A stretch of 33,980 bases of DNA from Chlamydiota bacterium. GTDB taxonomy: Bacteria; Auribacterota; UBA3054; B51-G9. Shown here piece after piece: positions 12,715 through 27,859 of the stretch. Under the pieces are notes generated by a model. That model saw nothing but the letters and a program-made list of their open reading frames with translations. It did no database searches and was not told where the DNA came from. Position numbers and translations under genes: made by a program. The stretch is taken from contig QMOL01000002.1 in assembly GCA_003648225.1 (NCBI GenBank), positions 1 through 33,980 on the forward strand, given 5' to 3'. Each line of letters begins with the position of its first letter. The first letter of the stretch is position 1.

Positions 12715-12745
12715 AATTCTCTCCTTAAGTTAAAGTTATATTATT

Positions 12746-13393
12746 TTACTTTACAGAAATATCTTCCGATTTATAGTGTACAAGAGCATCGCTCTTCCCA
12801 CTTACAAGCCTGGATACTTCTCCGGTTCCTCTTTTAACAATAGACGGCAAGCCATCTTTTCTTGGATACGCGGTAACTCTGATTTTTATAATCCCTTCGT
12901 AATAAACATCAGGACTTCCCAAAAGTCCCCAAAGAATAGATGATCCCTTTGTAAGTTTATCAACACCACTTGTTTCAAGAGCAACAACAACTCTATAATC
13001 CGTATCAGGAATAATTGATTTAGTGGGTACAAACTCTATTTTGCTGTTTTTGCTGTAAACAGGTAGATTTTCATAAGATACAGGAAGAACTATCCCTCCA
13101 CTTTCAGCTATTTTACTCGCAACGCTGTCAACCACATAATCATAAAGCGCGCTTTCTGGCAGACAGCCCACAACTTCCATATAAACTTTTTTTGATTTCA
13201 ATTTAGGAAATGACAAATTTTTTACCGCGATTGATGTAGCCTCAGCGAAGAGAGATTGCTGCGAAGCATAATTAGGAATTATTCCCGCATAAGTTTTCAT
13301 AGGCATAAGCCGATAATTAACCGCACAGCCTGTAAAAATAATAATAGTAATAATTGTAATACAAGAAAATTTAATTGTTCTTAGAATGTTCAT
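12746..13393 (-). CDS. lipoprotein (215 aa), unknown function
   Basis: Lipobox IFTGC, with GGAGA upstream. I recognise no motif. Confidence 0.75.
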   Translation of the reverse strand: MNILRTIKFSCITIITIIIFTGCAVNYRLMPMKTYAGIIPNYASQQSLFAEATSIAVKNLSFPKLKSKKVYMEVVGCLPESALYDYVVDSVASKIAESGGIVLPVSYENLPVYSKNSKIEFVPTKSIIPDTDYRVVVALETSGVDKLTKGSSILWGLLGSPDVYYEGIIKIRVTAYPRKDGLPSIVKRGTGEVSRLVSGKSDALVHYKSEDISVK

Positions 13394-13480
13394 AATAGTC
13401 TTTCTCCTTAATGTTTATTGATTGTTAAAAATTTTCGGCACATTGTATTTAATCACCGAAACCGGATATCAGTTAATGCT

Positions 13481-14440
13481 TTATCTTTCGTCAGATAGAA
13501 TTATACGGCAATATGATTTTCCTCTCATCGCCCTACTTCTTAATGCTCTATATTTATAAGTTTTTACTTTTGATGTTTTATTTCTTAATGTATGAACAGA
13601 AATAGCTGCTGCTATTTTAAGTTTAGTCATTTTCGGTTTATTTTCCATAAAATTTGTGTCAACACTTCTAAACGGAATATTTAATTGTTCTTCTTTCGCT
13701 CCTATTGTATCATCAATAAGCCTCATTTGTCTTTCATATTCTGTTAAAGCAGGCTCATATTTTAGTGTTTCATCGTACTTACATGCTTCAACAACCAGCA
13801 TTGTACCTAAAACTATAAAAGGCGGTGATGCCGGACTTCCAATAATACTAACAATCAGCCCGCCTGCGGTAGCATATGAAGCAACCGCGCCGGCGATAAA
13901 ACCTGCGATTTGTTCTTCGCGATATTTTCTACTCATATTTAAAATACCTTTCAACTCATTTATTTCTCCTTTTGTCAACAAGTTTTCTTTAGCATTGTTT
14001 AGCATATTTTCAAAATCATCATACAATTCAGGAATATAATCAATACCGCGAAAGTGGCATTCTTTAGCCGGTCTGTAAATATACCCGTTTGGGATTTTGT
14101 GTAAATCTTCCAAAAGAAAGTCCCAGTTTGCTGTAACTAACCTGCCTGATTTATTTTTATAAACCACAGGTTCAATTAAAACACCGTATTTATTCCCTGA
14201 CTTATCTTTATGAACGAACAAATACGGATAAAAAGGGTTATCGATTTCTCTCAATAATTTTTCAGGAAATTTTACGATATTGTAGAAACGATGTGTATAA
14301 AAACCTTTTCCCCATAAAAATCTGTTAGCGCCAATGAATTTTGTTTCTAAAGTCACATTCTCTTCTGAAAAAGCAATCTTTGCCTGTCCGAAAATTAATA
14401 ATAGAAAAATAAAATAACATATTTTAAACTTGTCTCTCAT
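13481..14440 (-). CDS. secreted/membrane protein (319 aa) with internal Gly/Ala-rich hydrophobic hairpin
   Basis: Signal peptide ends ...KIAFS/E. The hydrophobic segment reads IAGFIAGAVASYATAGGLIVSIIGSPASPPFIVLGTMLVV. Confidence 0.7.
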   Translation of the reverse strand: MRDKFKICYFIFLLLIFGQAKIAFSEENVTLETKFIGANRFLWGKGFYTHRFYNIVKFPEKLLREIDNPFYPYLFVHKDKSGNKYGVLIEPVVYKNKSGRLVTANWDFLLEDLHKIPNGYIYRPAKECHFRGIDYIPELYDDFENMLNNAKENLLTKGEINELKGILNMSRKYREEQIAGFIAGAVASYATAGGLIVSIIGSPASPPFIVLGTMLVVEACKYDETLKYEPALTEYERQMRLIDDTIGAKEEQLNIPFRSVDTNFMENKPKMTKLKIAAAISVHTLRNKTSKVKTYKYRALRSRAMRGKSYCRIILSDER

Positions 14441-14452
14441 GACTTTTCCCCG

Positions 14453-14863
14453 TTACTTTTTATTATATAGCCAGTTAGTAACTCCAATACCCATAATAAT
14501 ATCATCATATTCTTTTGTTCCCGGTGTTGGAGGAGTTAAACAATGACCGCCAAAAGCGACATGAGGTCCATTTTCACACAATCCGTTACAACCGCCCCGA
14601 CAGCCGTGATTTTCCCAGACTATCCCAAACTCTTTATATGCTTTTATCAATTCTTCATCATCATCCCGTGGCATAGATAAATCACACCCTCCGTAAATAA
14701 ATGGTTTGGCATCCGGGATTGGCGGTGAGCCGTCAAAACAATATTTAGGCGCGGAATCCGGAGTTATAGGGTATGGTTCAAAGGTTCCGCGTTCAACAAC
14801 AGTTGTGCACGCGAAGCCTAAGAAAGAAATAATTATTAATAGAAAAAGTTTTATGTATTTCAT
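14453..14863 (-). CDS. Cys-rich lipoprotein (136 aa)
   Basis: Signal sequence plus an FLGFAC lipobox-like site. Seven further Cys include HGCRGGCNGLCENG. Its ATG lies 2 nt after the stop of the upstream gene. Confidence 0.7.
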   Translation of the reverse strand: MKYIKLFLLIIISFLGFACTTVVERGTFEPYPITPDSAPKYCFDGSPPIPDAKPFIYGGCDLSMPRDDDEELIKAYKEFGIVWENHGCRGGCNGLCENGPHVAFGGHCLTPPTPGTKEYDDIIMGIGVTNWLYNKK

Positions 14864-14865
14864 AG

Positions 14866-16290
14866 TTAAAAAATTGTAAGGTTATCTACTTCATTCTCTT
14901 TCCAAAAAGCCGGAGCTAACGGAATAATTCTAATATCTGATTCTTCATCAACAGGGTCAATTTCAAGATAATGTCGAGAGCTTATTTGCGAATCAACAAT
15001 ACTGCTGCTAACCTCTTCAGTTTCAAATTTATATTTCCCGAAATGGTCAAAAGTAGTTCGGCAATAAATTAAATTATCATCCTTTTTTATAGGATAATAA
15101 TAATAAACCTGCCGCCATTCAGGTAATTCCGCATTAGAAGAAGAGTAAAAACATACAGCAATATTGTGAAATCCGGGTTCAATGTCAAGACTTCCTACTC
15201 CTATATCCTCTGGTAATAAATCCCATACACGAACATCCGCTTCGGTTCGTACTGCCGCGCCGGCAACAAGTGCTGCTCCTATTCCTGCAGCTGTTGCTGC
15301 GGCTCCGTTTCCTTTAGTAGCAATCAGAACTCCTGTAAACGCTCCTGCGAAAGCGCAGACTCTAACAGTCCATTTTGCACCAATTTTAATTTTTTGGATT
15401 GTCTCGGCAGTTTTTTCTGTATTACACGAAAGTTGACAAAAAGTAGAAGTGCATCTATTAATTTGTATTTTTTCATTACCGTCAACGAATATTTTAGCGT
15501 ATTCAATTTTAGAGCTTCTTGGAATATATTCTGCAAATGCCGAGCATGACCATATATCTTTAATATTATTTTCTCGCTGTTTAAGCGGGCTATCCCCCCA
15601 TTCAACAATAAAGATAGTATTATCAGAATCTATTCCATTTCTTTTGTTTTCATAGTTGTCATTATTTTCATCATTAACTACGACTTCTTCTTCATCAGTA
15701 TCATCAATTTTTTCTTCGATTTCGTTTACAAATTTACTTTTTTGAATATAAGTATCTGCGGTATCCGGTTCACCAAGTAAATAATTACATCTTGCCGCCA
15801 TAACATAGCCGGCAGAGAAATCGGAAGTATCATCTTTATTTAAGCTCATAGTATCTTTATCGGCATCAATTCCTCGACGGAAAGCTGCAAGAGCTTTTTC
15901 ATAATCACCTCGGCGATAATGAATAATTCCGCGATACCAATGACACATTGAGCGTTCAAATGGCTCGCCTTTAAATTCTTTAAAATCTTCTCTGGAGACG
16001 GAAGACCAAAAAGCGTTATCGGAACCGGTAACGGTTCGCTCCATCACTTTCCCGGCATTTAAAAACGGAAGGAAAGCGAGATCGTATCCTCCGCCGGTAA
16101 AATAAAATTGTCCAAGTTTTGCGTTATTTAAAGCAAAATTTCTATTTAGTTTATCTGCACATGGACGTGATAGTTTTGCGGCTTTGCCAAAATCATTCAT
16201 ATAGAAAGCATCTTCAGCTTCTTTTGGAATTTGTGCCGCGCAACCTGCCAGTAAGAATAGAATTAATATTATTAAGATTTTATTTATCAT
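14866..16290 (-). CDS. lipoprotein (474 aa) with TPR-like helical region, acidic linker and glycine-zipper-like segment
   Basis: Lipobox LLAGC. The TPR-like segment reads HWYRGIIHYRRGDYEKALAAFRRGID. The acidic run reads EEKIDDTDEEEVVVNDENNDNYE. The Gly/Ala zipper reads AFAGAFTGVLIATKGNGAAATAAGIGAALVAGAAV. Confidence 0.75.
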   Translation of the reverse strand: MINKILIILILFLLAGCAAQIPKEAEDAFYMNDFGKAAKLSRPCADKLNRNFALNNAKLGQFYFTGGGYDLAFLPFLNAGKVMERTVTGSDNAFWSSVSREDFKEFKGEPFERSMCHWYRGIIHYRRGDYEKALAAFRRGIDADKDTMSLNKDDTSDFSAGYVMAARCNYLLGEPDTADTYIQKSKFVNEIEEKIDDTDEEEVVVNDENNDNYENKRNGIDSDNTIFIVEWGDSPLKQRENNIKDIWSCSAFAEYIPRSSKIEYAKIFVDGNEKIQINRCTSTFCQLSCNTEKTAETIQKIKIGAKWTVRVCAFAGAFTGVLIATKGNGAAATAAGIGAALVAGAAVRTEADVRVWDLLPEDIGVGSLDIEPGFHNIAVCFYSSSNAELPEWRQVYYYYPIKKDDNLIYCRTTFDHFGKYKFETEEVSSSIVDSQISSRHYLEIDPVDEESDIRIIPLAPAFWKENEVDNLTIF

Positions 16291-16304
16291 TTTTATTATT
16301 TTAT

Positions 16305-16868
16305 TTATCTGTTTATTGGTTCATATTTACCATAATATTTATATTCATCATCATCACACCATACAATCCCACCTGTTTTGGCATCGGTAAGTCGAAATGA
16401 CAATCTGTAATATACTTCCCGACCTCCTCCTTTACGAATAGAATCGGCATAAGCCCGTCCGGTAAGAAAATAATCCACATTCATCAATTTAGCGATTTCC
16501 TTTCTTTTTTCCAAATCACTTCCTGATAAGTTATTTATTATTTCCGGGAATTGTTTTCTGTCAATAAATTCAAAATTATTACTTGCTATAAGCTCCTTTC
16601 TGATTTGGGAAAGCAGGTTATATGAATCGAATGTATCGTCAAAAGTTCTGTTTTCAACTTTCATAAAGACAATTCTTAGCGGTTTGTCTTTAGAACTTAT
16701 TTTACTTTTAGCAATTGATCTTGACATTTTTTGAGCCGTAGCTTTTAAATCCGTTACAGTTAAATCTGTGTCTATTATTAGATTGTCATCAAGACCCATC
16801 CGCGTTTCCGGAGGAGTACATCCGTTAAGACAGATTAAAATTATAAAAATATATATTAGAAATTTCAT
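16305..16868 (-). CDS. LpoB-like (COG3417-type) lipoprotein, paralog 1
   Basis: Lipobox LNGC. The core reads VENRT...DSYNLL..IR..L....F.F.DR...DYFLTG...YYRLSFRLTDAKTGGIVW. This matches the E. coli LpoB C-domain pattern (VNNRT...LRNAL...YVLYS...LQMQLMLVQTGEIIW). Confidence 0.7.
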   Translation of the reverse strand: MKFLIYIFIILICLNGCTPPETRMGLDDNLIIDTDLTVTDLKATAQKMSRSIAKSKISSKDKPLRIVFMKVENRTFDDTFDSYNLLSQIRKELIASNNFEFIDRKQFPEIINNLSGSDLEKRKEIAKLMNVDYFLTGRAYADSIRKGGGREVYYRLSFRLTDAKTGGIVWCDDDEYKYYGKYEPINR

Positions 16869-17010
16869 ATTTGTTTTTTGTTTTGTTATTTGTGATATCC
16901 GTGTCTAACTTTTTTGACACTGATTACACTGATTTACACTGACTTTATAATTTTTTTAATTTAAATAATTTCTTTTCCGTGAATATCTGTGATATCCGTG
17001 TCTGTATTTT
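16869..17010. repeat. intergenic spacer module, copy 1
   Basis: Block order: TTGTTTTTTGTTTTGTTATTTGTGA, then TTTTTTGACACTGATTACACTGATTTACACTGA, then TTTTTTTAATTTAA, then TTCTTTTCCGTGAATATCTGTGATATCCGTGTC. The same order recurs at 20095-20220. Confidence 0.85.
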
Positions 17011-17020
17011 TTGGTTGTTC

Positions 17021-17584
17021 TCATTCCACCGGAAGATACTTTTTCACTTCATAATCATCTTCCCAGACTACCCGGCCATCTTTTGTATCAACAAGTCGAA
17101 AAGAGAGTCTGTAATTTTTTGATTCTCCTGAGCTATCGCTCTGGTCATCACAAAAAGCTGTTCCGGTAAGGAAATAATCAATACCGAGCAATTTTTTCAA
17201 TTCTTTATAGTTCTCATTATTAATTTTTCTCCAACGCTTTTCAGCAACAATTCGATTAATTGATGCCCGATCAACAAACTGTAATTTCCGGTTACTATTT
17301 TCCAGAATCAACTGTCGAATTTTGTCAAGCAGATTATAAGAATCAAAATCTAAATCTCCGGTACGATTTTCTATAACTGCAAATCCTATTATCGTGGGTT
17401 TATTAGATGAAATGTTAGCTGATGTAACTATTGATCGTGCCATTTGCTGCGATGTGGAACGCAAGTCAGTTGAACTCAGATGTGTATCAAGAATAGCGTC
17501 TTCATCAAGTCCTTTTTTTTCCGCGGTACCGCAAGAGAAAATTATAAGACAACAAAAAAGAGAAGTAATTATTTTTAAATTCAT
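17021..17584 (-). CDS. LpoB-like lipoprotein, paralog 2
   Basis: Lipobox IFSC. Shares IENRTGDLDFDSYNLL, DYFLTG and YRLSFRLVDTKDGRVVWEDDYE with paralogs 1 and 3. Confidence 0.7.
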   Translation of the reverse strand: MNLKIITSLFCCLIIFSCGTAEKKGLDEDAILDTHLSSTDLRSTSQQMARSIVTSANISSNKPTIIGFAVIENRTGDLDFDSYNLLDKIRQLILENSNRKLQFVDRASINRIVAEKRWRKINNENYKELKKLLGIDYFLTGTAFCDDQSDSSGESKNYRLSFRLVDTKDGRVVWEDDYEVKKYLPVE

Positions 17585-17792
17585 AGTTTTTTGGTTAAGT
17601 TTAATTTTTGATACTAATTTAATGGGGAAGTTAAAAGCTTTTTTTTAGATAATTCATTTGCATTTTTATTGATATATCGGAACAAATTTTTTACTTATAT
17701 TTTCTTATGCGGTTAAGTTATTTCGTAGTTTCTGTGCCTGAGTATACGTTATATCCCCCAATATTCCATGAGTAAAAACTTCGTGGTTTGTT

Positions 17793-18194
17793 TTATTCTT
17801 CTCCACCAACCCAATCTGCCTGCCAAACATAATCAGGAAAACTTTCCTGATTATAAAAAGAATTTCCAAGTGAGCCAAAAGTAATTAAATCTATACTACC
17901 AGAACCAAACCGACCAAGAGTGTAAAAAGGCCCCTTCACTGCACCTGTTAATACGCCAAGTCCCGGCAAAACTATAAAGTTATCATTAATCATATTGCGG
18001 GGGATTTCAAGCCAGCAGGTTAAAATATTTACTATTCCGCGACTAAACGCTTCGTCGCGTTTGACATAAGTCCTTTCAACTCCGCTTTTGGTTTCAACCT
18101 GCGAACTGACAGTATCAAGACTTTGCTCGGCAACGACATAATTTGTTCCGCCCAAAACACATGATACAACGATCCATACTAATATTTTTTTCAT
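17793..18194 (-). CDS. TIGR04073-type (exosortase-system-associated family) small secreted protein
   Basis: 133 aa with a signal peptide. Contains SRGIVNILTCWLEIPRNM, G..KG...TLGR...G..DL.TF and PDYVW. This matches my recollection of the TIGR04073 family signature. Confidence 0.55.
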   Translation of the reverse strand: MKKILVWIVVSCVLGGTNYVVAEQSLDTVSSQVETKSGVERTYVKRDEAFSRGIVNILTCWLEIPRNMINDNFIVLPGLGVLTGAVKGPFYTLGRFGSGSIDLITFGSLGNSFYNQESFPDYVWQADWVGGEE

Positions 18195-18266
18195 TTCAAA
18201 CTCCTATTTTAATTTTTATTTTTCATACAAAAATAAACAAGTAATATATATTTTTTCATTTGGATT

Positions 18267-18347
18267 ATTATTTAGATCAATTAGGTCAATTAGGTTAATT
18301 AGAAATTCAGAAAGTAATCCATCAATCCATCAATTCATCAATTCATA
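18267..18347. repeat. 9-nt array AG(A/G)T(C/T)AATT x3 (18274-18300) plus 8-nt array AAT(C/T)CATC x4 (18316-18347)
   Basis: agatcaatt aggtcaatt aggttaatt, and aatccatc aatccatc aattcatc aattcata. The first array duplicates the purH-proximal array. Confidence 0.9.
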
Positions 18348-18366
18348 CCGCACTAGGAAGCGCGGC

Positions 18367-18939
18367 TTACTCTATTCTTTTAAGTTCATAATCATCTTCC
18401 CAAACTACCGCGCCGTTAGCAGTATCAGTCAGTTTGAATGATAATCTGTAATAACTTGTTCGATTATCTACTCCCACTTGTCTGTCTTCAAATAAATACC
18501 CACCGAGCAGAAAATCGGCACCGGCAAATTTTCCGGCTGTACCGGTTACCGTCCCATCTTCTTTCATTCTGTTTTCATTAAGGATTCGTTTTGTAACTCC
18601 TGCAGACCGATCCAAAAACACAATATTTAAGGATCCGTTTTTCAGTAAATTTTTTCTTATATTGTATTGCAGGTTTTTAGCATCAACACCTTTGTATGTT
18701 TTATCTTCAACACCTGTAAAAGATATTTTTGGCTGTGAACCATCTGTTGGATTAAGTGCTCTGCATGCTGCAAGTGATCTTGCCATTTTATTCACTGTTG
18801 CCCGTAAATCATCAGCTTTTAAATCTGAGTTTAAAACTTGTTCTTCATCAATAGCCACACGGGTAGTTCGCGGACCGCCTGAAGCGCATCCTTGCAATAT
18901 TACCATTACGATAATATTTATCAATAAAAATGTTTTCAT
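18367..18939 (-). CDS. LpoB-like lipoprotein, paralog 3
   Basis: Lipobox LQGC. Contains VEDKTYKGVD, DFLLGG and YYRLSFKLTDTANGAVVWEDDYE. Confidence 0.7.
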   Translation of the reverse strand: MKTFLLINIIVMVILQGCASGGPRTTRVAIDEEQVLNSDLKADDLRATVNKMARSLAACRALNPTDGSQPKISFTGVEDKTYKGVDAKNLQYNIRKNLLKNGSLNIVFLDRSAGVTKRILNENRMKEDGTVTGTAGKFAGADFLLGGYLFEDRQVGVDNRTSYYRLSFKLTDTANGAVVWEDDYELKRIE

Positions 18940-19017
18940 AAATATTCTCCAAGTTAAATTAAAAAACTCTCTTTTGAGTTTTGTTATTTGTTATTTGAAT
19001 TTTGCTATTTTAGAATA

Positions 19018-20094
19018 TTATTCGATAAAGTCCTTTGGTATAAATGTTCCTGTAAACGGTATTATTCTATCCCCGCGCTGTATTCTTTTCGTTTCTGATT
19101 CTATCATTGCGATACTGTATCCGGGATAAACTTCCGTAACGCGAAGCAACCCTATTTTCAGTTCCGCGTGGCCGAGAGATCTTCCTGTTTCCGGGTCAAT
19201 CAAATCTCTTGCACTGGCATTTGCACCCATATCCCGAACAACAAAGAAGCGGTCGTTTTTCAGCACTCCTTCTTTTTGACCTGCGGAAAGGTAAACTTTA
19301 ATAACAGTTTTTGTGCGTTTTTTCCCTGTTAACATTTCCTGTTCATACTCTTCCTTGTTTTGAGATGAATCGGAAATAAAACCACCTTGTGCCGCTCCGC
19401 TACGAAGAACATCTTTACCCGGTTTATACGCTTCTATCCTAATAATTCGCGCGTACCAAGCGTTATCACCAAGTCGATTCAATACTTTTGAAATTGCCGC
19501 TTCTATAGTTTCATATCTGTCTGCTTTTCGCGCACGACCGGTAATAACTTCTCCGGTTCTAATATCAAATAGTCGTACCCGAACGATAAAATTATCTCCG
19601 CTTTTATTCCAACTTGCCGTAAGATAATAATGAATACCAAGAATCGGCTTGTCCTGATTTTTTACATCGGAAGCTACTATTCCGTTATCCTGCAAACTAC
19701 GCTCATTTAAAATTGATCGCAGTTTCGCCCGCTCGATGACATTAACTTTTTCCGTGTCATCAACCGCGCAGACCAAATCATCGAAGAAATCTTCTTGTGG
19801 AGTATCAAAATTAAATGTAAGATTTGATACAACAGGACTTGTTCCGCTTTTCAACAAAATTTCAAACCAGTTTTTGGGCAGAACAGCAATATTATATTTC
19901 ACCCGTTTAGTAACCGATGGAACAGTATTTTGAGCAGTTTTGGAATCGGTTTTCGGGGTTGTTATTTTTTTAGGAACTATTTTTTCAATTGATTTCTGTT
20001 TTAATGGCGTAGCAGGCTTATTTGTTTTAACCGCAAATAAAAAATTCGCTGTTAGAACAAAAACCGTACAAAAAATTATAATGGATAGTTTCAT
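19018..20094 (-). CDS. secreted protein (358 aa): Pro/Lys/Thr-rich linker, CsgG/LpoB-like core, C-terminal beta-domain reminiscent of FlgT_C
   Basis: Has a signal peptide. The core reads YNIAVLP...VNVIERAKLRSILNE...HYYLTASW...VRVRLFDIRTGEVITG. The C-terminus reads VIKVYLSAGQKEGVLKNDRFFVV...IGLLRVTEVYPGYSIAMIES...IQRGDRI. Domain naming is by pattern only. Confidence 0.6.
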   Translation of the reverse strand: MKLSIIIFCTVFVLTANFLFAVKTNKPATPLKQKSIEKIVPKKITTPKTDSKTAQNTVPSVTKRVKYNIAVLPKNWFEILLKSGTSPVVSNLTFNFDTPQEDFFDDLVCAVDDTEKVNVIERAKLRSILNERSLQDNGIVASDVKNQDKPILGIHYYLTASWNKSGDNFIVRVRLFDIRTGEVITGRARKADRYETIEAAISKVLNRLGDNAWYARIIRIEAYKPGKDVLRSGAAQGGFISDSSQNKEEYEQEMLTGKKRTKTVIKVYLSAGQKEGVLKNDRFFVVRDMGANASARDLIDPETGRSLGHAELKIGLLRVTEVYPGYSIAMIESETKRIQRGDRIIPFTGTFIPKDFIE

Positions 20095-20346
20095 TTTTTT
20101 GTTTTGTTATTTGTGAAATTTGTTTTTTTTGACACTGATTTACACTGATTTTATATTTCTTTTTTTTAATTTAATCTTTTCTTTTCCGTGAGTATCCGTG
20201 ATATCCGTGTCGGCATTTTTTTTACACTGATTTCACTGATTTCACTGATTTACACTAATTTTAATAATTCTTGGTTTATATAATGCAAAGTTTTTAAATT
20301 TATTTATTTCCGTGAATATCCGTGATATCCGTGTCGGCATTTTTTT
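20095..20346. repeat. intergenic spacer module, copy 2 (20095-20220) and partial copy 3 (20221-20346)
   Basis: Both copies contain CACTGATTT arrays followed by TTCCGTGA(G/A)TATCCGTGATATCCGTGTCGGCATTTTTT. Copy 2 also shares the GTTTTGTTATTTGTGA leader with copy 1. Confidence 0.9.
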
Positions 20347-20743
20347 ATTTCGCGTATCTTATACTTATCACATAATCAACAGGTTTATCCGATAAAGAAT
20401 TCGACTCGAAAGTATAGATTTCATAATGACCGAGAACAACCGGCATCCAATTAGTTTCATCAACAAAGAAATTATCTTTATCTTTAAAGCGAACTTTTAC
20501 TTGTAAGGGTAAAGATTTATCTGTTTGATTTTTAATTTGTGCTTCGACTTTCAGCAGACCATTTGCTAATCGGCTACTCCGTAATCCGGTTATGGTAATA
20601 TCATCCTGTAATTTGTCGTCCATTAAAACAACTTTTTCTGTAACTTCAAGAGCATTATCTTCACGCGTTGCTGTATAAGGACCAACACACGAAGACAGGA
20701 AAACTACCATTGCCATACTTAATAATAAGATTATTTTCATCAT
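20345..20743 (-). CDS. YcfL-like (DUF1425-type) lipoprotein
   Basis: 132 aa, lipobox LSSC. The beta-rich body reads LLKVEAQIKNQTDKSLPLQVKVRFKDKDNFFVDETNWMPVVL...DYVISIRY. This parallels E. coli YcfL (..VTVHYRFYWYDARGLE...VRLYLYL). GGAG spacing favours the second Met (20740) as the start. Confidence 0.6.
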   Translation of the reverse strand: MMKIILLLSMAMVVFLSSCVGPYTATREDNALEVTEKVVLMDDKLQDDITITGLRSSRLANGLLKVEAQIKNQTDKSLPLQVKVRFKDKDNFFVDETNWMPVVLGHYEIYTFESNSLSDKPVDYVISIRYAK

Positions 20744-20810
20744 AACTCCTTTTTTTGTTTAGTTGCGATTTTTAAAAAGCATAATTCAGGTTAAAATAAT
20801 AGATTACAAA

Positions 20811-21059
20811 TTATTCATCGCGACAGGTGGAACATTGTTCACAAACTTCTATACCAAGTGCTTTGAACACGGCTTGCATTGTTCGATATGTAACTCCTAA
20901 ATCTCCTGTTTCCAGACGCGACAACGTTTTTCTGCTTATTCCCGCTTTAGCTGCTAGAAATTCCTGTGTCCAACCATATTTTTCTCTTAATCTCAAAACT
21001 TTTGAAACATAATTGCAAACAATGTTTTTATTTTTATGCATATTTTTATTTGATTTCAT
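20811..21059 (-). CDS. XRE-family helix-turn-helix regulator with C-terminal CxxCxxC
   Basis: 82 aa. The HTH reads WTQEFLAAKAGISRKTLSRLETG. The tail reads CEQCSTCRDE. Confidence 0.8.
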   Translation of the reverse strand: MKSNKNMHKNKNIVCNYVSKVLRLREKYGWTQEFLAAKAGISRKTLSRLETGDLGVTYRTMQAVFKALGIEVCEQCSTCRDE

Positions 21060-21074
21060 AAATTTAATTATTAA

Positions 21075-21116
21075 ATTATATTAAAATGATTACTTAAAGT
21101 CCACGTCATATATGAC
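21075..21116 (-). promoter_or_regulatory. candidate promoter of the XRE gene with adjacent 12-bp palindrome (possible operator)
   Basis: The minus strand reads GTCATATATGAC (21105-21116), G, TGGACT (21098-21103), a 17-nt spacer, then TATAAT (21075-21080). Confidence 0.4.
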
Positions 21117-21345
21117 TCATGCAGTGCCGATATATGATAAGTTACAGGCACTGCTGAGGAATCAGGCTGCCGCCTGATTAATTTTCATGTGTTTGCATGC
21201 TGATAAATTGCTGGGCAAATTGCGGTTCTTCAACCGCTCACCACTCACTACTATGCCCTATGAAGTCTTACTCAACCAGGGAAGAGGTAATTACCTTCTC
21301 ACCTTTCAACTGTGAACAGTATGACTGTTCATTATATATACGCAA
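21105..21345. ncRNA. candidate structured non-coding RNA or regulatory hairpin cluster (strand unresolved)
   Basis: GC is about 46% over 21121-21300 by hand count, against about 20-25% in the flanks. Local hairpins: GCAGTGCC/GGCACTGC (21121-21154), AATCAGGC-TGCC-GCCTGATT (21160-21179), GCGGTT-CTTC-AACCGC, GGTAATTACC and TGAACAGT-ATG-ACTGTTCA. There is no ORF of 60 aa or more. Confidence 0.3.
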
Positions 21346-21390
21346 GCCAGCTAATTTTCTTGCATTTGCAAAATAATTTAATAACAAAAC

Positions 21391-21410
21391 GAATGATTGT
21401 CATTCTTTTT
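21391..21410. terminator. weak bidirectional hairpin terminator downstream of the CHAT gene
   Basis: GAATGA-TTG-TCATTC is followed by TTTTT on the plus strand. On the minus strand the same hairpin is followed by GTTTTGTTATT. Confidence 0.35.
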
Positions 21411-21488
21411 ATCTGTAAGATAATAAAATTATATTTTTTAATTAGTGGGAATTAGTGAAATCCGTGTCTAAGTTTTAAAATATCGAAG

Positions 21489-24452
21489 TTATTCCGCATT
21501 ACCATTGAGAATAAACGAACTCCAAAAAAAAGGATGGCAGAATTGTTTGGAGCTTTTCAATTGAATTTTTGCATTGAATAATGATTTAACAGGACTCTGT
21601 TTTTTATTTAAATTTTCATAAAATTGTTTCATTAATTCATTAGTCCCTTTGTCATCTATGCTCCAGAGAGACGCAACAACATTTCTCGCTCCGGCATAGA
21701 AAAAAGCGCGTGCAAGACCTGAAATGGATTCGTCATCACCACACTCAACTAATCCTGACTGGCAAGCGCTTAAAACGATAATATCAGCATTAAGGTTCAG
21801 GTTAAAAATTTCGCTCATTTTCAGAAAACCATCGTTCTCTTTATCACCGTAAATTGACAGCACAAGACAAGGTTCAGCAAAACCTTTAATTTGTCCGGGT
21901 AATATTCCATGAACAGCGAAATGAATATATTTATATTTATTGAGACCGCTGTTGTTATTCAGGCTTTTTAATATAGATTCGCTTGCTCGATTTTGAATAT
22001 AAATAAATTGCTTGTTATTGTTGCCGTAGAAAATACGTGAAATATATTCCACCTCCTTTTTTGTGGCAGGTAAAGGCTTTAAAGATATGTCCCCGTTACT
22101 CCCAAATTGCAATGATCGGGTTGCTATTCTATTATGAGTAATATCAAATGAAACAAGAGCATTTGCAATTTTATAAGAAGTTTTATTTAGAAATATAGAT
22201 ATTTTAGATTTTATAGCCTGCTCTTTTGTGTAAATCGGGTCTCCAACAAGAAGCGCCGGAAAACGTTTTTCTGATGACTGACAGTTAGTCTCAAGCATGA
22301 CCACGCTTTGCGTGTTACTTCGTGAGCGCCGGGCGCTTGCACGAGTTGATAGATGGTAGTTAATATTTAGTCTTTCATTTTTTTTGACTGCTCTGAGTAC
22401 CGTAGCAGAAGGAATATAAGCAAACTTAACATTATTCAACATATAATTTAATGTTGAGAATGAAGTGCCGTTGGTATTTGAAATAAGAGCCGAAAAAGGT
22501 ATAGCGGCAAGATTACCGTGTGGAACTATAAATATAGTTTTGGGATTATCATTTGTTATTTTCTCGGCAAAGGGTTGTAAAATTTGACTATACAAGTTAA
22601 AACTTGCAGATTTAAAATCACTTAATTTTGAAAGTGCACCGTGGAATTCAAGGGTATGACGAAAATTCGCAATAAGGTTATTTAGTCTTTCAGAAGAAAT
22701 TTTATGGGCAAGGAAATAAAAATTAGTTTTGCCAATGACAATAGCAAATAGATGCTCATTTCCAATCCAGTAGTTTACAAGGACTTCATTATTTTTTAAT
22801 ATTTTATTTTGCACCTGACTTACAGTAATAGGTTTAGGTTTTCTCAATTCAGAATAACGAGGGTATTTATTATCAAATTCAGTTTTAAGATTATTCAGCT
22901 TCGATCTTACATCCGACAGTTGCAGCTCAATATCCGCTATAAGGTTATTATCTTTTAATTGTTTCGGTTTGGCGATTTCGTTACGCATTCGTTTTTCGAG
23001 ACTTTGCTTTTTTACAATGAGTCTTCTTTCTCTTTTTTTATCTTTGGAAGTTAAATTACATCTTTTTGTAGCAGTAGCATTGTAGATTTGCTGAAGCAAT
23101 TTCCTTGACCGGGAGATTTCAGTTATCCAAAATGTTTTTTCAGCATAAACGTCAGCCAAATCAATAGTGTTTTTGAGCAACAATAATTCACATTCAAGAA
23201 AATCAGAACAACTTTTCTGCTGCTGCTTTCTAAGTGATTTAGAAAAATCTTCTCCACCGGCGGTAACGGTTGATAATTCGAGTATTTTTGTGCTTGAAAC
23301 AAATAACTTCACGGCCTTAACATAGTTTGTCTGCTTCACACATACACTTGCAAGTTTACCGATAATATTAGCGGTATTCGGATTACTTTTACCAAAAAGA
23401 AGTTTAGAGATTTTTAACGCTTTATTATATTCTCTTTCCGCGACATCATACTTTTCGAGTTTAAAATTAATATCGCCGAGCAAGACAATAGCCGACATAG
23501 TAGCTATATGGTTTAATGAATGGAATTCGAGTGCGGATTTGTAAGCCATTTCACCATATTTTTTAGCGAGCAGGTATTTTTTTTGAAGAAAATACAGATT
23601 TGCAATATTTCTTAAATTAAAGTTTTTGCCTTCTGAGGGGTAAGGTAGAGAATTATAAAAGTCAATATTTTCTAAATATATTTTTTCAGCTTTTTTATAT
23701 TTTTTTTGCTTTGAATAAATACCCGCGATCTTTGTTTTGATTTTACACGTGTCATGTGTTTTTTCTCCAATTAATGCTATTCGCATTTTCAAAGCGCGCT
23801 TTAAAAGTGGTTCTGCAGCTTCATAATTACCGATTGAACGGTAAAGCGAAGCGAGGTTATTCATTGATACGGTAAGTCGGTAAGCATTTGTATTTAATAT
23901 TTGTTTATAAATATCAAAAGCTTCTTTGTATAATTTTTCCGCCTCTGCGTATTTACTTTGAATATGATACAATAAAGCCTTATTATTTAAGTGATTAGCG
24001 GTACATAAATTTATTCTGCCAACTGCCTGCTCGATTGTTTTGATACCGTGATTATGGAAATGCTCTGATTTATCGTATTCGCCGATTAACCTGTAAACAT
24101 TACCGAGCCCGTAGTAAGTATCCGCGATCTCGATATGCGCATTTGTGTAAATTGTTTTACGAATATTCAGTGTTTTATAATAATAAGGAAGTTCCTCTTC
24201 ATATTTTCCGTTATAATAATACGACATAGCCATTTGATCGTAAAGATCCGCAATGTAGGCGTCATTAGTTCCTGTCTTTTGAATAGCCGCATCGAGTTTT
24301 TTTTGTATAATGTTTCTTCCTTCGTTAAATTTACCTTTATTATATAATACTTTAAGTTCATTTTTGAACTCTTCTGTTACTCGTTCGGCAAAAGATACCG
24401 GTGCGAAAAGTAAAAAAATTAATAATAATATTTGGTAATATTTTGAAATCAT
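21489..24452 (-). CDS. exported TPR-repeat / CHAT-domain caspase-like protease
   Basis: From the internal Met there is a signal peptide, MISKYYQILLLIFLLFAPVSFA/E. Multiple TPR-like repeats follow (Y..G.Y..A...Y..AL periodicity), then a basic coiled-coil-like middle. The C-terminal CHAT domain has a His (YIHFAVHG) and Cys (IVLSACQSG) dyad. The ORF-track start at 24503 would lie inside the candidate promoter. Confidence 0.8.
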   Translation of the reverse strand: MISKYYQILLLIFLLFAPVSFAERVTEEFKNELKVLYNKGKFNEGRNIIQKKLDAAIQKTGTNDAYIADLYDQMAMSYYYNGKYEEELPYYYKTLNIRKTIYTNAHIEIADTYYGLGNVYRLIGEYDKSEHFHNHGIKTIEQAVGRINLCTANHLNNKALLYHIQSKYAEAEKLYKEAFDIYKQILNTNAYRLTVSMNNLASLYRSIGNYEAAEPLLKRALKMRIALIGEKTHDTCKIKTKIAGIYSKQKKYKKAEKIYLENIDFYNSLPYPSEGKNFNLRNIANLYFLQKKYLLAKKYGEMAYKSALEFHSLNHIATMSAIVLLGDINFKLEKYDVAEREYNKALKISKLLFGKSNPNTANIIGKLASVCVKQTNYVKAVKLFVSSTKILELSTVTAGGEDFSKSLRKQQQKSCSDFLECELLLLKNTIDLADVYAEKTFWITEISRSRKLLQQIYNATATKRCNLTSKDKKRERRLIVKKQSLEKRMRNEIAKPKQLKDNNLIADIELQLSDVRSKLNNLKTEFDNKYPRYSELRKPKPITVSQVQNKILKNNEVLVNYWIGNEHLFAIVIGKTNFYFLAHKISSERLNNLIANFRHTLEFHGALSKLSDFKSASFNLYSQILQPFAEKITNDNPKTIFIVPHGNLAAIPFSALISNTNGTSFSTLNYMLNNVKFAYIPSATVLRAVKKNERLNINYHLSTRASARRSRSNTQSVVMLETNCQSSEKRFPALLVGDPIYTKEQAIKSKISIFLNKTSYKIANALVSFDITHNRIATRSLQFGSNGDISLKPLPATKKEVEYISRIFYGNNNKQFIYIQNRASESILKSLNNNSGLNKYKYIHFAVHGILPGQIKGFAEPCLVLSIYGDKENDGFLKMSEIFNLNLNADIIVLSACQSGLVECGDDESISGLARAFFYAGARNVVASLWSIDDKGTNELMKQFYENLNKKQSPVKSLFNAKIQLKSSKQFCHPFFWSSFILNGNAE

Positions 24453-24504
24453 TAGCTTTTGTTTGTGTTTAGGATTGGTACTAATGTTATGCCAAATTTG
24501 CAAT

Positions 24505-24530
24505 GTCGAATTTTAACAATCTTTGTTCAA
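24505..24530 (-). promoter_or_regulatory. ECF-type promoter candidate upstream of the CHAT gene
   Basis: The minus strand reads TTGAAC (24525-24530), a 16-nt spacer, then CGAC (24505-24508). The layout resembles AAC-N16/17-CGxx promoters of ECF sigmas. It sits about 50 nt upstream of ATG 24452. Confidence 0.3.
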
Positions 24531-24646
24531 CCACGGAAGGTTTTTACCTATTTATTAAAAATCTTAACATAAAGTTATTTCTCCAAAATGATTAAAAAAA
24601 TATTATTTATTCACAAAAAATAATAAGCAAATGCCTGCAAATCAAA

Positions 24647-24669
24647 TTTGTCCCGATAATCGGGAGAAA
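24647..24669 (-). terminator. hairpin of the GTCCCGAT/ATCGGGA family, possible terminator of the anti-sigma gene
   Basis: The minus strand reads TTTC-TCCCGA-TTA-TCGGGA-CAAA followed by TTTGATTTG. About 37 nt are near-identical to the terminator at 11074-11110. Confidence 0.4.
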
Positions 24670-24675
24670 TTTCCT

Positions 24676-24786
24676 CCGAGTGCCTAAAACTTAACAATTA
24701 CCGGCACGATATCCGAATGCCTGCCGTTAACCAAACCTCGGTACGACAACCGAGTGCCTAACGTATGGCAATTATCGGGTCTTCAT
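24676..24786. repeat. three degenerate direct repeats with exact 37-nt period
   Basis: Units start at 24676, 24713 and 24750. Each begins CCGA(G/A)TGCCT and ends with an AA..(A/C)(C/T)CGG.(A/T)C block. Confidence 0.7.
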
Positions 24787-24815
24787 CTCGTGAATTTCGG
24801 TTTACGGGATGGTGA

Positions 24816-25301
24816 TTAATCGACATTGTTATTTTTATTGGTTATTTGTAACTGATAAACATTGGTTGATGCTGTTACTCCGCGAAGAGTGATTTGCGAC
24901 TCCGAAGTTTCGGAAGATGATTTTATTTTTCCTGCAATAAAAAATGATCCTGTAATTATAATAACCAAACATGCCGCACAGCTAAGTATTGAAATAGCAG
25001 TATGTTTTGAAAAATATGAAAGATTTAAAAAACTTGACGTTTGACGTTTAATGTTTGCTGATTGAGTTTGATGCTCTTCATTCAAGTCTTGTGATGGAAG
25101 AGTTTGTAATATTGTTTTTAATTGCTTATTTGTTTCCGACAAAGTTTCAATTTTCCTAACTTCTTCCGGTGAAGCAGTTCCTTCAATATACCTTGCAAGC
25201 ATATTATCATCAATATCATCTTCTTCCGGCGGCATAGCCGGTTGATTTCTAATTTCACGATAATAGTCGTGCAGCATTTGTTCTAAATTTTCTGTTTTCA
25301 T
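24816..25301 (-). CDS. putative single-pass membrane anti-sigma factor
   Basis: 161 aa. The cytoplasmic N-domain contains LARYIEGTASPEEVRKIE, as in FecR/RskA-type N-termini. One TM helix (AISILSCAACLVIIITGSFFIA) and a short exported tail follow. It lies downstream of an ECF sigma gene. There is no zinc HxxxCxxC motif. Confidence 0.4.
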   Translation of the reverse strand: MKTENLEQMLHDYYREIRNQPAMPPEEDDIDDNMLARYIEGTASPEEVRKIETLSETNKQLKTILQTLPSQDLNEEHQTQSANIKRQTSSFLNLSYFSKHTAISILSCAACLVIIITGSFFIAGKIKSSSETSESQITLRGVTASTNVYQLQITNKNNNVD

Positions 25302-25360
25302 TTTTCAAACCACAATTCTATTTTATTTTGATTCTCCTGTCTGTCTTGTAAATCCCCGTT

Positions 25361-25389
25361 ATAATACACAATCGGGGCAAGCTTATCAA
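25361..25389 (-). promoter_or_regulatory. sigma70-type promoter candidate for the anti-sigma gene
   Basis: The minus strand reads TTGATA (25384-25389), a 17-nt spacer, then TATTAT (25361-25366). Confidence 0.35.
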
Positions 25390-25678
25390 AGTAATCCCAA
25401 TCGCGCAGCAGAAGCTACGCGCAACGTTTCATTTTATCCCGACAATCGGGACACATAGTAAATGCCGCTGTCGCGTCTTTACGACTGCACTTTATACTCA
25501 ATATCCAACAACCAACACGGAACACCCAAGTTATGAAATTGTTCTATACTTTTACATTGCTCATTTCTGCTTCAAAAGTGCGCCTGTGGCGTATTGATTA
25601 TTGAGTGTTTAATTGTTCCATCAACCCATTCATCCAATAATCCATTATCCATTATTCATTAATATATACGCGCTCCGA

Positions 25679-26236
25679 TTAATTTTCTTGCAAGAGATTT
25701 TTCAATTTTGCGTGAATTTTCTTAAACTGTCTGCTGATTTTTGATTCACTGCATTGGAAAATCTCTGCAATTTGTCTTAACTTTAATTTCTGATAGTAAT
25801 ATAATTGAATAAGATTCTTTTCGTTTGCCGGAAGTATTGCAATTGCATCTGTCAATTCTTCATTGCGTTCATTTTCAATTAATTCAGCCCCTTTAGGTTT
25901 ATACAACTCTTCAAACTTATCTGAAAAGATAATAAAACCTCTTGTTTTTCTTTTTCGATGATAACTTAATACAATGCGGCTGAAAATGACCGACAAATAA
26001 GTTCTTAATGATGTTGAACCATCGTAACGTTCAAGTGCGCTTTTAACTTGCCCCGGCATACCGAGTAATTTGAAAATGAATTCAGAGAAGACATCATCAA
26101 AATAATAAGATACATTAAACTTCCGAGCTATAATTATACAATCACGTCTGTATGTTGCAATGAGTTTTGACCAGGCTTTTTCGTTGTTTTGAGTGCAAGC
26201 AACGGCAAGTTCAATGTCTTGTTTATGTTTCGACAT
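25679..26236 (-). CDS. ECF-type sigma-70 family RNA polymerase sigma factor
   Basis: 185 aa. The region-2-like segment reads AWSKLIATYRRDCIIIARKF...DDVFSEFIFKLL...SLRTYLSVIFSRIVLSYHRKRK. The region-4 HTH reads LKLRQIAEIFQCSESKISRQFKKIHAKL. Confidence 0.8.
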   Translation of the reverse strand: MSKHKQDIELAVACTQNNEKAWSKLIATYRRDCIIIARKFNVSYYFDDVFSEFIFKLLGMPGQVKSALERYDGSTSLRTYLSVIFSRIVLSYHRKRKTRGFIIFSDKFEELYKPKGAELIENERNEELTDAIAILPANEKNLIQLYYYQKLKLRQIAEIFQCSESKISRQFKKIHAKLKNLLQEN

Positions 26237-26385
26237 AAATGAGCATTTGTAAAGATTAAATGTAAACTCTTTTAAATAGAACCCAATCGTTCAAAATACC
26301 CGGCGTGTAAAAATAGGTTTTTTGGTCAAGTACTAAATATCATTTTTAACAAAGTTATAAAATTATAGTCAATAATAGAATGATT

Positions 26386-26424
26386 GTCAATTGATTTGAC
26401 CTTCCCAATTCCGGCGACTAAAAT
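26386..26424 (+). repeat. repeat element E, copy 1: GTCAA/TTGAC hairpin plus CCCAATTCCGGCGACTAAA
   Basis: The 19-nt block CCCAATTCCGGCGACTAAA (26404-26422) is identical to 30548-30566. Both are preceded by ATTTGACCTT. Confidence 0.9.
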
Positions 26425-26599
26425 CTTATAAACTGATTAATAAGTTAATAAATATTTAATATTCAGTTAATAATTAGAAAGATTTAGTGGCGGGATTATT
26501 CGCGTTAATTTTTTCAATGCTGAAAATACGACACGATAAAAAGAATGCTAAAAACGGCTGGATGTGCCTTAAATAAAGGGAAAGACGAGTGCTTAATGA

Positions 26600-26676
26600 T
26601 GGTACGCCAGACAGGACTCGAACCTGTGACCCCCGGATTAGAAATCCGATGCTCTATCCAGCTGAGCTACTGGCGC
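26600..26676 (-). tRNA. tRNA-Arg (anticodon TCT), CCA encoded
   Basis: The reverse complement is GCGCCAGTAGCTCAGCTGGATAGAGCATCGGATTTCTAATCCGGGGGTCACAGGTTCGAGTCCTGTCTGGCGTACCA. It folds as a cloverleaf with a 7-bp acceptor stem (G1:U72 wobble), a GCTC/GAGC D-stem, a CGGAT/ATCCG anticodon stem with loop TTCTAAT, and an ACAGG/CCTGT T-stem with loop TTCGAGT. Confidence 0.93.
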
Positions 26677-26707
26677 ACGAATCATCAAAAGCATAAATTC
26701 GGGCTTT

Positions 26708-26736
26708 ATTATATCCATTTTCCAATTTTCTTGCAA
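26708..26736 (-). promoter_or_regulatory. sigma70-type promoter for the tRNA-Arg gene
   Basis: The minus strand reads TTGCAA (26731-26736), a 17-nt spacer, then TATAAT (26708-26713). It is about 32 nt upstream of the mature 5' end. Confidence 0.55.
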
Positions 26737-26854
26737 GCTGTTGAGTCAAAATCGATGTTATGGTAAAATTATACTATAACGGCAAATTCCATATTTACCG
26801 TTGAAAGGTCAATTGGTGATAAATTAATTGTAACTTTTAAAAACATTGATTAAA

Positions 26855-27385
26855 ATGAAAAAGAAATTTATACTTAAACTGTTTATGTTAACCGGTGTGT
26901 TCTGCTTTATATCTTTAGGAGCAGAAAGTAAAACTAATTTAAATCAAAATGTCGTAATTAATACCAAAACAAATGGTGTCATCAAAACTAAAAAAAACAA
27001 AATTGAACATGAATCTCCACGACGTAAACGTTCTAAGGCGGTAGAAACTTTTCTGAATCGGGAAGGTTGGCAGTCAGGTGCCGGTTATAAAGAAATGCAA
27101 AGATATCTTAAAAGACTTGCTCATCTTTGTGAAGATAGAATTCCCGGACTCGTAAATGGCGTCGCGGGCGGTAAGCGCGGGATATTGTTGAATGTAACTT
27201 TTAAAGGTCAGAAAAGTTTTTATATGGCACGTGAAAACACCGAAGAATTCCTTCGCGCTATAATCGGTGATCTTGAAAAGATGCCTGAACCGGTAGCGTT
27301 AGCTGTATACGTTACTCATAACAAGCATAATATAATTTCAGCTATAAAAGAAGGTGGGAAAATAAAAGTGAAATTTTTATTGTGA
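26855..27385 (+). CDS. small secreted protein (176 aa), unknown function
   Basis: Signal peptide MKKKFILKLFMLTGVFCFISLGA. The ORF-track start is TTG 26846 and the first ATG is 26855. I recognise no motif. Confidence 0.6.
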   Translation: MKKKFILKLFMLTGVFCFISLGAESKTNLNQNVVINTKTNGVIKTKKNKIEHESPRRKRSKAVETFLNREGWQSGAGYKEMQRYLKRLAHLCEDRIPGLVNGVAGGKRGILLNVTFKGQKSFYMARENTEEFLRAIIGDLEKMPEPVALAVYVTHNKHNIISAIKEGGKIKVKFLL

Positions 27386-27460
27386 ATTGTGAGTAGTGAG
27401 TGTGCGCCTTTGGCGCGGTGAGTGGTGAATGGTTATATGGAATAATAACGGAGTAAAAAT

Positions 27461-27859
27461 ATGGCAGGGAATAATGTGACTCATAAACAAAACTTTGAAC
27501 AACTTGAATGCTGGAAAGCATGTCGGGGTCTTCGACTGTTCGTTGTAAAAAAAGTTGTTCCTATTTTGCCAGCAGAAGAACGGTACAGATTAACTGACCA
27601 ACTTATTCGATCTGCCAGATCCACAACTGCAAACATTGCGGAAGGTGATGGTCGATTTCACTATTTAGATAACGCTAAGTACTGTCGTATTTCTCGCGGT
27701 TCTTCTAAAAAAGTGCTTGATCACATAATAACAGCAAATGATGAAGATCTTATTACTGATGATATGCTTCTTGATTGTCGTATATTAGTAGAACGCGCTG
27801 TAAAACTATTAAGTGCATATATTCGTTATCTAACAAAAGCTCAAATATCCGACAACTAA
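27461..27859 (+). CDS. four-helix-bundle protein (TIGR02436 / 23S rRNA intervening-sequence protein family)
   Basis: 132 aa. Contains LP..E.Y.L.DQLIRSARS..ANIAEG.GR and RGS..E(K)V..H, the characteristic pattern of this family. ACGGAG lies upstream of the ATG. Confidence 0.8.
   Translation: MAGNNVTHKQNFEQLECWKACRGLRLFVVKKVVPILPAEERYRLTDQLIRSARSTTANIAEGDGRFHYLDNAKYCRISRGSSKKVLDHIITANDEDLITDDMLLDCRILVERAVKLLSAYIRYLTKAQISDN

Follow-up and report, generated by a model that had tools for sequence, protein, structure and literature searches.

We analysed a 33,980-nucleotide (nt) stretch of DNA (hereafter the window; contig QMOL01000002.1 of assembly GCA_003648225.1, positions 1 to 33,980) from a bacterium labelled Chlamydiota and placed by GTDB in the Auribacterota. 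The genes studied here belong to an uncultured lineage that is known solely from metagenomic contigs and one metagenome-assembled genome (MAG). Our interest is in a group of four genes coding for an extracytoplasmic function (ECF)-type sigma factor, a small single-pass membrane protein, a TPR-CHAT caspase-like protease, and an XRE-family helix-turn-helix (HTH) regulator, and in whether the protease acts in the control of the sigma factor. An open reading frame check of the window confirms the four genes and coordinates given in a preliminary description of this DNA, all on the minus strand (Table 1).

Table 1. Features of the sigma factor/membrane protein/TPR-CHAT locus, in window coordinates (REP, repetitive extragenic palindromic)
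Feature	Coordinates	Strand	Basis
Sigma factor, ECF-type two-domain sigma-70 family, 185 residues	25679-26236	-	TIGR02937 and Sigma70_r4
Small single-pass membrane protein, putative anti-sigma factor, 161 residues	24816-25301	-	Adjacency to sigma gene, topology
TPR-CHAT caspase-like protease, 987 residues, predicted exported	21489-24452	-	Pfam, homologue starts, AlphaFold/Foldseek
Predicted CHAT signal peptide, residues 1-22	24387-24452	-	N-terminal sequence features
Catalytic His848 codon (IHFAVHG)	21909-21911	-	Invariant in 51-sequence alignment
Catalytic Cys897 codon (LSACQSG)	21762-21764	-	At least 90% conserved; aligns with Csx29 Cys658
XRE-family HTH regulator, 82 residues	20811-21059	-	HTH_3, E=6e-13
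Consensus sigma-70-type promoter TTGACA-17-TATAAT, 5' of sigma gene	26362-26390	-	Promoter scan
ECF-type promoter motif TGCAAG-N16-CGTATA, facing small-protein gene, overlapping sigma 3' end	25665-25692	-	Exact match
Second TGCAAG-N16-CGTATA copy, ~275 nt upstream of XRE gene	21337-21364	-	Exact match
REP-like palindrome TCCCGATTGTCGGGA, sigma/small-protein spacer	25437-25451 (element about 25430-25455)	.	Repeat search
REP-like palindromic element GAGGAAATTTcTCCCGATTATCGGGACAAATTT, small-protein/CHAT spacer	24640-24675	.	Repeat family D9

The sigma factor, membrane protein, and protease had been described as a unit, and this arrangement is conserved. From contigs carrying members of the sigma family or the small protein we assembled ten non-redundant loci; the small-protein gene is present in all ten, the sigma gene lies immediately upstream in nine, and a caspase-fold protease (TPR-CHAT, Peptidase_C14, or both; exported or membrane-anchored) directly follows the small protein in seven. 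The sigma and small-protein genes are followed by a TPR-CHAT gene in the window and in loci L017, L001, L002, and L010; by a gene for a membrane-anchored Peptidase_C14-FG-GAP protein of 888 residues and then a TPR-CHAT gene in L003-L005; and by the C14 gene only in L007-L009. A heparinase II/III-like protein is encoded after the small protein in L006 and L016, and nothing follows it in L018. The L018 contig has no sigma gene, and the L016 contig begins just upstream of the small-protein gene, so that the sigma gene is cut off. The spacing is often tight: the small-protein gene shares about 20-29 nt with the C14-FG-GAP gene (11188-13854 in L003, where the overlap is 29 nt; 6487-9150 in L007), and 17 nt separate the small-protein gene from the CHAT gene in L002 (17-166 nt across relatives). 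The genes flanking the module are unrelated between loci; upstream neighbors include acetate kinase and peptidase S49 (L001, L002), PheT and a mechanosensitive channel (L003, L006), and a giant exported FGE-sulfatase/PKD protein (L007).

Residues 21-181 of the sigma factor match TIGR02937 (sigma70-ECF; E=6.7e-27, NCBIfam scan), and Pfam identifies Sigma70_r4 (E=5e-9); Pfam Sigma70_r2 has no match in the protein, and region 2 is therefore divergent. In a profile search of the PDB the closest solved relatives are FliA sigma-4 domains, and there is a weak end-to-end profile alignment with E. coli sigma-E (1or7). Judged by domain content and size, the protein is classed as an ECF-type (group 4) sigma factor. 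The family is small, with 18 clusters that are all at least 56% identical, and a scan of GTDB species-representative genomes with the sigma profile yielded one true relative, the MAG that carries L010. Another candidate from the same scan, L011, was rejected as an unrelated Planctomycetota ECF sigma factor with a zinc anti-sigma factor.

A hallmark of group 4 ECF sigma factors is a cognate anti-sigma factor encoded beside them, and the 161-residue protein, given its context and topology, is probably that anti-sigma factor. It has one strong hydrophobic segment (Kyte-Doolittle maximum 2.51 in a 19-residue window, starting near residue 105), and its AlphaFold model shows four helices at the N-terminus (predicted local distance difference test [pLDDT] 75-89), then a single long transmembrane helix and a C-terminal tail of 36 residues. 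The predicted layout is thus a cytoplasmic helical domain (residues 1-67), a transmembrane helix at about residues 97-125, and a conserved periplasmic tail. The stretch LARYIEGTASPEEVRKIE resembles the usual helix of anti-sigma domains, and zf-HC2 aligns weakly there. Three residue pairs in the tail, Arg140-Gly141, Thr146-Asn147, and Asn155-Lys156, are invariant across 11 sequences, and the motif around the first pair is (T/I)LRG in 6/6 CHAT-bearing loci versus (I/L)FRG in 5/5 loci lacking CHAT.

The TPR-CHAT protein matches CHAT (PF12770, caspase clan) with E=3.3e-52, where the Pfam cut-off is 24 bits, and TPR_12 with E=5e-49 in six stretches; the TPR superhelix extends to about residue 530 and the CHAT domain spans about residues 619-985. 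All four close homologues (77-80% identical) begin at the internal Met at position 24452, and none has a counterpart of the upstream TTG extension; the protein is therefore 987 residues long, and the internal start favored in the preliminary description is the right one. With that start the preliminary description saw a strong Sec signal peptide, and the expected features are present: in the N-terminus, MISKYYQILLLIFLLFAPVSFA/E, a single basic residue (Lys) is followed by ~15 hydrophobic core residues, and the predicted cut comes after S-F-A. In the homologues this character is kept while the sequence drifts, as it does in signal peptides, and we predict a Sec signal-peptide-like N-terminus that is either cleaved or retained as an uncleaved signal anchor. 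The His/Cys dyad reported earlier (IHFAVHG, LSACQSG) is also intact. In an alignment of 51 sequences the HG and AC motifs (His848-Gly849 and Ala896-Cys897) are conserved; His848 never varies, and conservation reaches at least 90% for both Gly849 and Cys897. Cys897 aligns with Csx29 Cys658, one of the two catalytic residues of that protein (PMC10028731).

The AlphaFold model of the protease is good overall (pLDDT 86, predicted template modelling score 0.83), with helices at residues 743-779 at pLDDT ~50-60, and its top Foldseek matches in the PDB are Csx29 (8eey_B, 9e-14), DdvA (8rw5 and 8rot_A, 3-4e-13), other craspase entries, and human separase. The window protein also carries an Arg/Ser-rich insertion of 25-26 residues, RASARRSRSNTQSVVMLETNCQSSEK (22266-22343, residues 704-729), which is missing in all four close homologues and sits in a low-confidence loop of the model. 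The preliminary description called CHAT proteases best known as cytoplasmic effectors or sensors. Exported TPR-CHAT proteins are common: of the 120 matches listed for the CHAT search, which are mostly TPR-CHAT proteins, ~74 have an N-terminus that resembles a signal peptide when judged crudely by hydrophobicity. One contig (L015, 1300-12979) carries at least four tandem TPR-CHAT genes beside a gene for a Por_Secre_tail protein. In another locus (L013), a distant exported TPR-CHAT gene (5001-8621, 22% identical) has an ECF sigma gene and an overlapping gene for a 281-residue protein (10123-11491) 1.5 kb downstream, a pairing that may be an independent association.

A promoter-like motif shared with the module links the XRE gene to the sigma factor. 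We first met it as a direct repeat in the window (21334-21364 and 25662-25692) in which the hexamers are identical and the spacers between them differ, as expected of a promoter; there are two exact copies of TGCAAG-N16-CGTATA in the window, and no similar-looking others within two mismatches. In L001-L009 and L016-L018 the motif overlaps or closely follows the 3' end of the sigma gene (or occupies the equivalent spot where the contig lacks that gene), facing the small-protein gene; the short L010 contig has no exact match. Across 234 kb, TGCAAG-N16-CGTA is matched exactly at 22 sites, versus 0.3 expected from base composition, and the extended consensus is tTTGCAAGaaaayyaatcggcttgCGTAtatata. 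Further copies precede the XRE gene (in the window and in L007 and L008, the only other locus type with this gene), a small lipoprotein gene (L004), and two genes of L006 (a divergent hybrid kinase gene and one that is heparinase II/III-like); two more are found elsewhere in L002. The motif contains both AA (-35) and CGT (-10), typical elements of ECF promoters (PMC6061681); it pairs a CGT-like -10 with an AAC-like -35, in the variant form CAAG, ~16 nt apart. Two other explanations of the motif were discarded. As a sigma-70 promoter it would have a spacer of 18-19 nt from TTGCAA to TATATA, a poor fit; and it is not a by-product of codons at the sigma C-terminus, as it lies ~90 nt past the stop codon in L003 and recurs far from sigma genes. 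Short perfect hairpins such as GAACAGTcatACTGTTC lie directly 3' of the motif (window 21312-21330; about 9185-9205 in L001; about 10680-10700 in L003) and may stabilize the 5' end of the leader RNA.

The co-occurrence of motif and sigma gene points to TGCAAG-N16-CGTATA as the promoter that the window sigma factor is predicted to use. The sigma gene itself appears to be expressed otherwise: its TTGACA-17-TATAAT promoter scores 12/12 in the promoter scan of the window, L007 and L017 likewise keep a consensus sigma-70 promoter 5' of their sigma genes, and TGCAAG-N16-CGTA is absent upstream of every sigma gene among the loci searched, leaving no sign of positive autoregulation. Such autoregulation is common in ECF sigma genes, but is not universal. 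We infer a wiring in which the sigma factor would be constitutive and the anti-sigma factor and protease would be sigma-dependent, giving negative feedback, with XRE also sigma-dependent.

The preliminary description knew of no described system of this architecture; that view is outdated. DdvA of Myxococcus xanthus is a single-pass anti-sigma factor with a periplasmic TPR-CHAT region of ~900 residues, the partner of which is DdvS, a sigma factor of the ECF type. A proposal, as yet undemonstrated, has the TPR-CHAT part cut DdvA's own linker in trans inside a dimer, after which RseP would act (PMC11506125). Csx29, a TPR-CHAT protein, cleaves Csx30, the inhibitor of an ECF-like sigma factor (PMC10028731). 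Our preferred reading, in which our confidence is evenly poised, is that the window encodes a split DdvA/DdvS-like ECF module, in which a periplasmic TPR-CHAT protein would sense a signal and cleave or release the anti-sigma tail, freeing the sigma factor. The 161-residue protein would sequester the sigma factor through its cytoplasmic helical domain, and the TPR array would sense a protein signal in the periplasm. CHAT may then act on the tail as a site-1 protease, cutting near the invariant Arg140-Gly141, or else its role may be to bind the tail and so protect it against a site-2 protease until the TPR array senses the signal. The freed sigma factor would transcribe the anti-sigma/protease operon (as negative feedback), XRE, and lineage-specific envelope and exported proteins, and in this genome transcription may also read through XRE to reach the first genes of the lipoprotein cluster. 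The narrower proposal that the caspase-fold protease (TPR-CHAT, or Peptidase_C14 in relatives) is a trans-acting, signal-sensing site-1 protease cutting the tail beside Arg-Gly is possible, and we advance it tentatively. If it is right, the locus would represent a new ECF group with separate substrate and protease, and would directly support the unproven CHAT-dependent release proposed for DdvA.

The same promoter data can be read differently. With an ECF-type promoter ahead of the small-protein and protease genes, the proteases are expected to be sigma-dependent products, and they could simply be outputs of a conventional ECF switch that responds to some other signal, exported on demand for envelope remodelling, protein turnover, or attack on other cells, with no role in sigma release. 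The motif also precedes genes of unrelated exported proteins, and many exported TPR-CHAT proteins have no sigma neighbor. We nonetheless judge this account, the main rival, rather unlikely: the putative anti-sigma factor has a periplasmic tail of just 36 residues and no sensor domain of its own, and a partner must therefore sense the signal; the overlap or near-abutment with protease genes suggests coupled synthesis; and both characterized cases of a TPR-CHAT protein with an ECF-type sigma factor place the protease upstream of sigma release (PMC11506125, PMC10028731). Were the proteases mere outputs, the locus would represent a new ECF group that is ordinary but for its regulon, which would be unusual.

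Several observations weigh against the split-module reading. The slot after the small protein varies among CHAT, C14, both, a heparinase II/III-like protein without an obvious signal peptide (two loci), and nothing (one locus), and regulon cargo therefore fits it as well as a sensor does. The tail is conserved even where no protease adjoins the small protein, and the correlation of tail motif with CHAT, a small one, is confounded by phylogeny. In Pfam and NCBIfam no anti-sigma family matches the small protein significantly, the 11 family members giving only isolated weak matches, in one member each (zf-HC2, E=0.18-0.34; a Leptospira anti-sigma NCBIfam model, 0.0029). PDB sequence and profile searches with it returned nothing relevant, and Foldseek with its model (pLDDT 57) gave no matches at E<=0.001. 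It also lacks the zinc ligands (CHCC) of the DdvA cytoplasmic domain, with no Cys in residues 1-96 and three His (His11, His76, and His100), of which only His11 is inside the predicted helical domain. The -35 element of the promoter motif reads CAAG rather than the canonical AAC, and none of the four distant exported TPR-CHAT homologues checked lies directly beside a sigma gene.

The spacing of the genes in the window bears on the same question. The four genes are separated by 377, 363, and 429 nt, and the 'detached' layout of the preliminary description is correct for the window and for its closest relative, L017, which also has enlarged spacers; it does not extend to the other relatives, where the genes overlap or are 17-230 nt apart. 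The 377- and 363-nt spacers each hold a palindrome, TCCCGAT(T/A)(G/A)TCGGGA, and a ~35-nt element of the 363-nt spacer (24640-24675) recurs at 11072-11102, with a partial copy at 17662-17692. These palindromes look like REP-like insertions. A REP-like palindromic element, GAGGAAATTTgTCCCGATnnATCGGGACAAATTT, is scattered through the intergenic DNA of the window, and two copies enlarge the module spacers. The 363-nt spacer, the REP-like insertion in it, and a weak hairpin resembling a terminator (24754-24737, promoter/terminator scan) make co-transcription of the CHAT and small-protein genes uncertain here.

The XRE protein has a clear HTH_3 domain (E=6e-13, Pfam) and, as described before, a Cys-rich tail: Cys15 is joined by a C-terminal CxxCxxC (CEQCSTCRDE), with Cys codons at 21015-21017, 20841-20843, 20832-20834, and 20823-20825. 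An orthologue with 74% identity, encoded two genes upstream of the sigma gene in L007-L009, keeps both Cys15 and a CEQCSxCRDE tail, which suggests metal or redox sensing, and XRE is likely a member of the sigma regulon. The lipoprotein genes do lie directly after XRE as the preliminary description had it; XRE ends 67 nt before the first of them (YcfL-like), with no terminator predicted between. The cluster codes for three LpoB-like proteins, a TIGR04073-type exosortase-associated protein, and two proteins with weak family resemblance, one DUF1425/YcfL-like and one CsgG/FlgT_C-like. The three LpoB-like lipoproteins (16305-16868, 17021-17584, and 18367-18939) are paralogous, and the set as a whole is an unusual concentration of envelope lipoproteins.

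This adjacency had led to the suggestion that a periplasmic CHAT protease, under envelope-signal control, processes or regulates the ~12 neighboring lipoproteins and exported proteins. Besides physical proximity, the suggestion could draw on the ECF-type promoter before XRE, with its short terminator-free path into the first lipoprotein gene, and on a degenerate copy of a cluster intergenic repeat (family D6) at 21451-21476, just past the CHAT stop codon. It fails the co-occurrence test that the preliminary description itself had set: a tblastn search with eleven cluster proteins (11165-20743) found no homologue within 10 kb of the module in L001-L011, the flanks of which are unrelated housekeeping or other genes, and nothing marks the lipoproteins as substrates. 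We consider it highly improbable.

Other features of the neighborhood are recorded here. The intergenic regions of the lipoprotein cluster (20124-20345 and 16854-17012) contain tandem arrays of short motifs, GACACGGATATCACGGATATTCACGGAAA and ATCAGTGTAAATCAGTGAAATCAGTG on the minus strand, before several genes; these may be regulator binding sites. The cluster includes a 430-residue Gly-rich exported protein (11165-12457) that contains internal repeats of ~45 nt and is without a Pfam match at E<=0.01, the C-terminal (KDKA)n tail of which is encoded by a 12-nt tandem repeat (11180-11287). On the other side of the module, a tRNA-Arg(TCT) gene (26600-26676) lies just 5' of the sigma promoter region and is the sole match in an Rfam scan of 20000-27500, and a gene of the 23S rRNA intervening-sequence protein family is nearby (27461-27859).

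Caspase-fold proteases are frequent in conflict systems, and XRE-type control proteins are common in defense loci. Their presence together here, the match of the protease fold to DdvA and Csx29, and an AbiEii gene adjoining the module in L002 raise the idea of a phage-defense or conflict regulator resembling DdvA/DdvS, in which the periplasmic TPR-CHAT protein would sense an invader protein and the sigma factor would turn on defense genes. PADLOC finds only generic TPR, HTH, and caspase models and no defense system; the window has no clustered regularly interspaced short palindromic repeats (CRISPR), cyclic-oligonucleotide-based antiphage signaling system (CBASS), or other recognizable defense genes; and the extra promoter copies precede genes for envelope and exported proteins and a kinase, not defense effectors. 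A defense role is accordingly quite improbable.

Among known systems, the craspase of type III-E CRISPR loci (Csx29/Csx30/CASP-sigma, PMC10028731) resembles the proposed scheme in having a TPR-CHAT protease that acts in trans on a sigma inhibitor, and supplies the best structural match (8eey_B). Craspase is cytoplasmic and RNA-activated via Cas7-11, whereas here export is predicted for the protease, and the putative inhibitor is membrane-bound. There are no genes for Cas7-11/gRAMP, Csx30, Csx31, or other Cas proteins, and no CRISPR array, in the window or related loci, and the locus is thus not a craspase.

In systems of the RseA/DegS/RseP type, a single-pass ECF anti-sigma factor is cut first in the periplasm and then within the membrane, and the putative anti-sigma factor here would be attacked in the same order. 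The candidate site-1 protease differs in being a caspase-fold cysteine rather than a serine protease, and the periplasmic part of the anti-sigma factor is only 36 residues; there is no site-2 protease gene in the window. Database families of exported TPR-CHAT proteins from Bacteroidota and further phyla have the same architecture (a signal peptide-like N-terminus, a TPR_12 array, and CHAT) at 21-27% identity, but those checked are not directly beside a sigma/anti-sigma pair, and some are in tandem. No ECF group defined by a separate CHAT neighbor was found in the literature searched.

The closest parallel is with DdvA/DdvS. Both have an ECF-type sigma factor beside a single-pass (here putative) anti-sigma factor, a predicted periplasmic TPR-CHAT region with a His/Cys dyad, and sigma-dependent-type promoters in the locus; the CHAT fold matches 8rw5 and 8rot_A, the dyad is conserved, and there is a predicted export signal. 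The link to DdvA comes from Foldseek with the CHAT model, as PDB sequence searches with the sigma and CHAT proteins returned no match named DdvA or DdvS among the matches listed. Unlike DdvA, which is one polypeptide, the components here are two proteins (161 residues, and 987 residues with its own signal peptide) encoded 363 nt apart; the zinc-binding CHCC three-helix cytoplasmic domain is missing, the sigma gene has no sigma-dependent motif upstream, there is no defense island, and relatives add or substitute a Peptidase_C14 protein. Lacking the fusion and the zinc center, the locus falls outside the defined DdvA family; its mode of action is plausibly DdvA-like. Demonstration of CHAT-driven sigma release in DdvA/DdvS has been held up by the lack of a known signal and by the union of protease and substrate in a single chain. 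The split genes described here, coding for a protease, a minimal anti-sigma factor, and a small sigma factor, together with a sharp promoter motif, would make the hypothesis of CHAT-dependent release directly testable. They also extend the link between ECF sigma factors and caspase-fold proteases past Myxococcota and CRISPR loci to an uncultured lineage, in which Peptidase_C14 joins CHAT.

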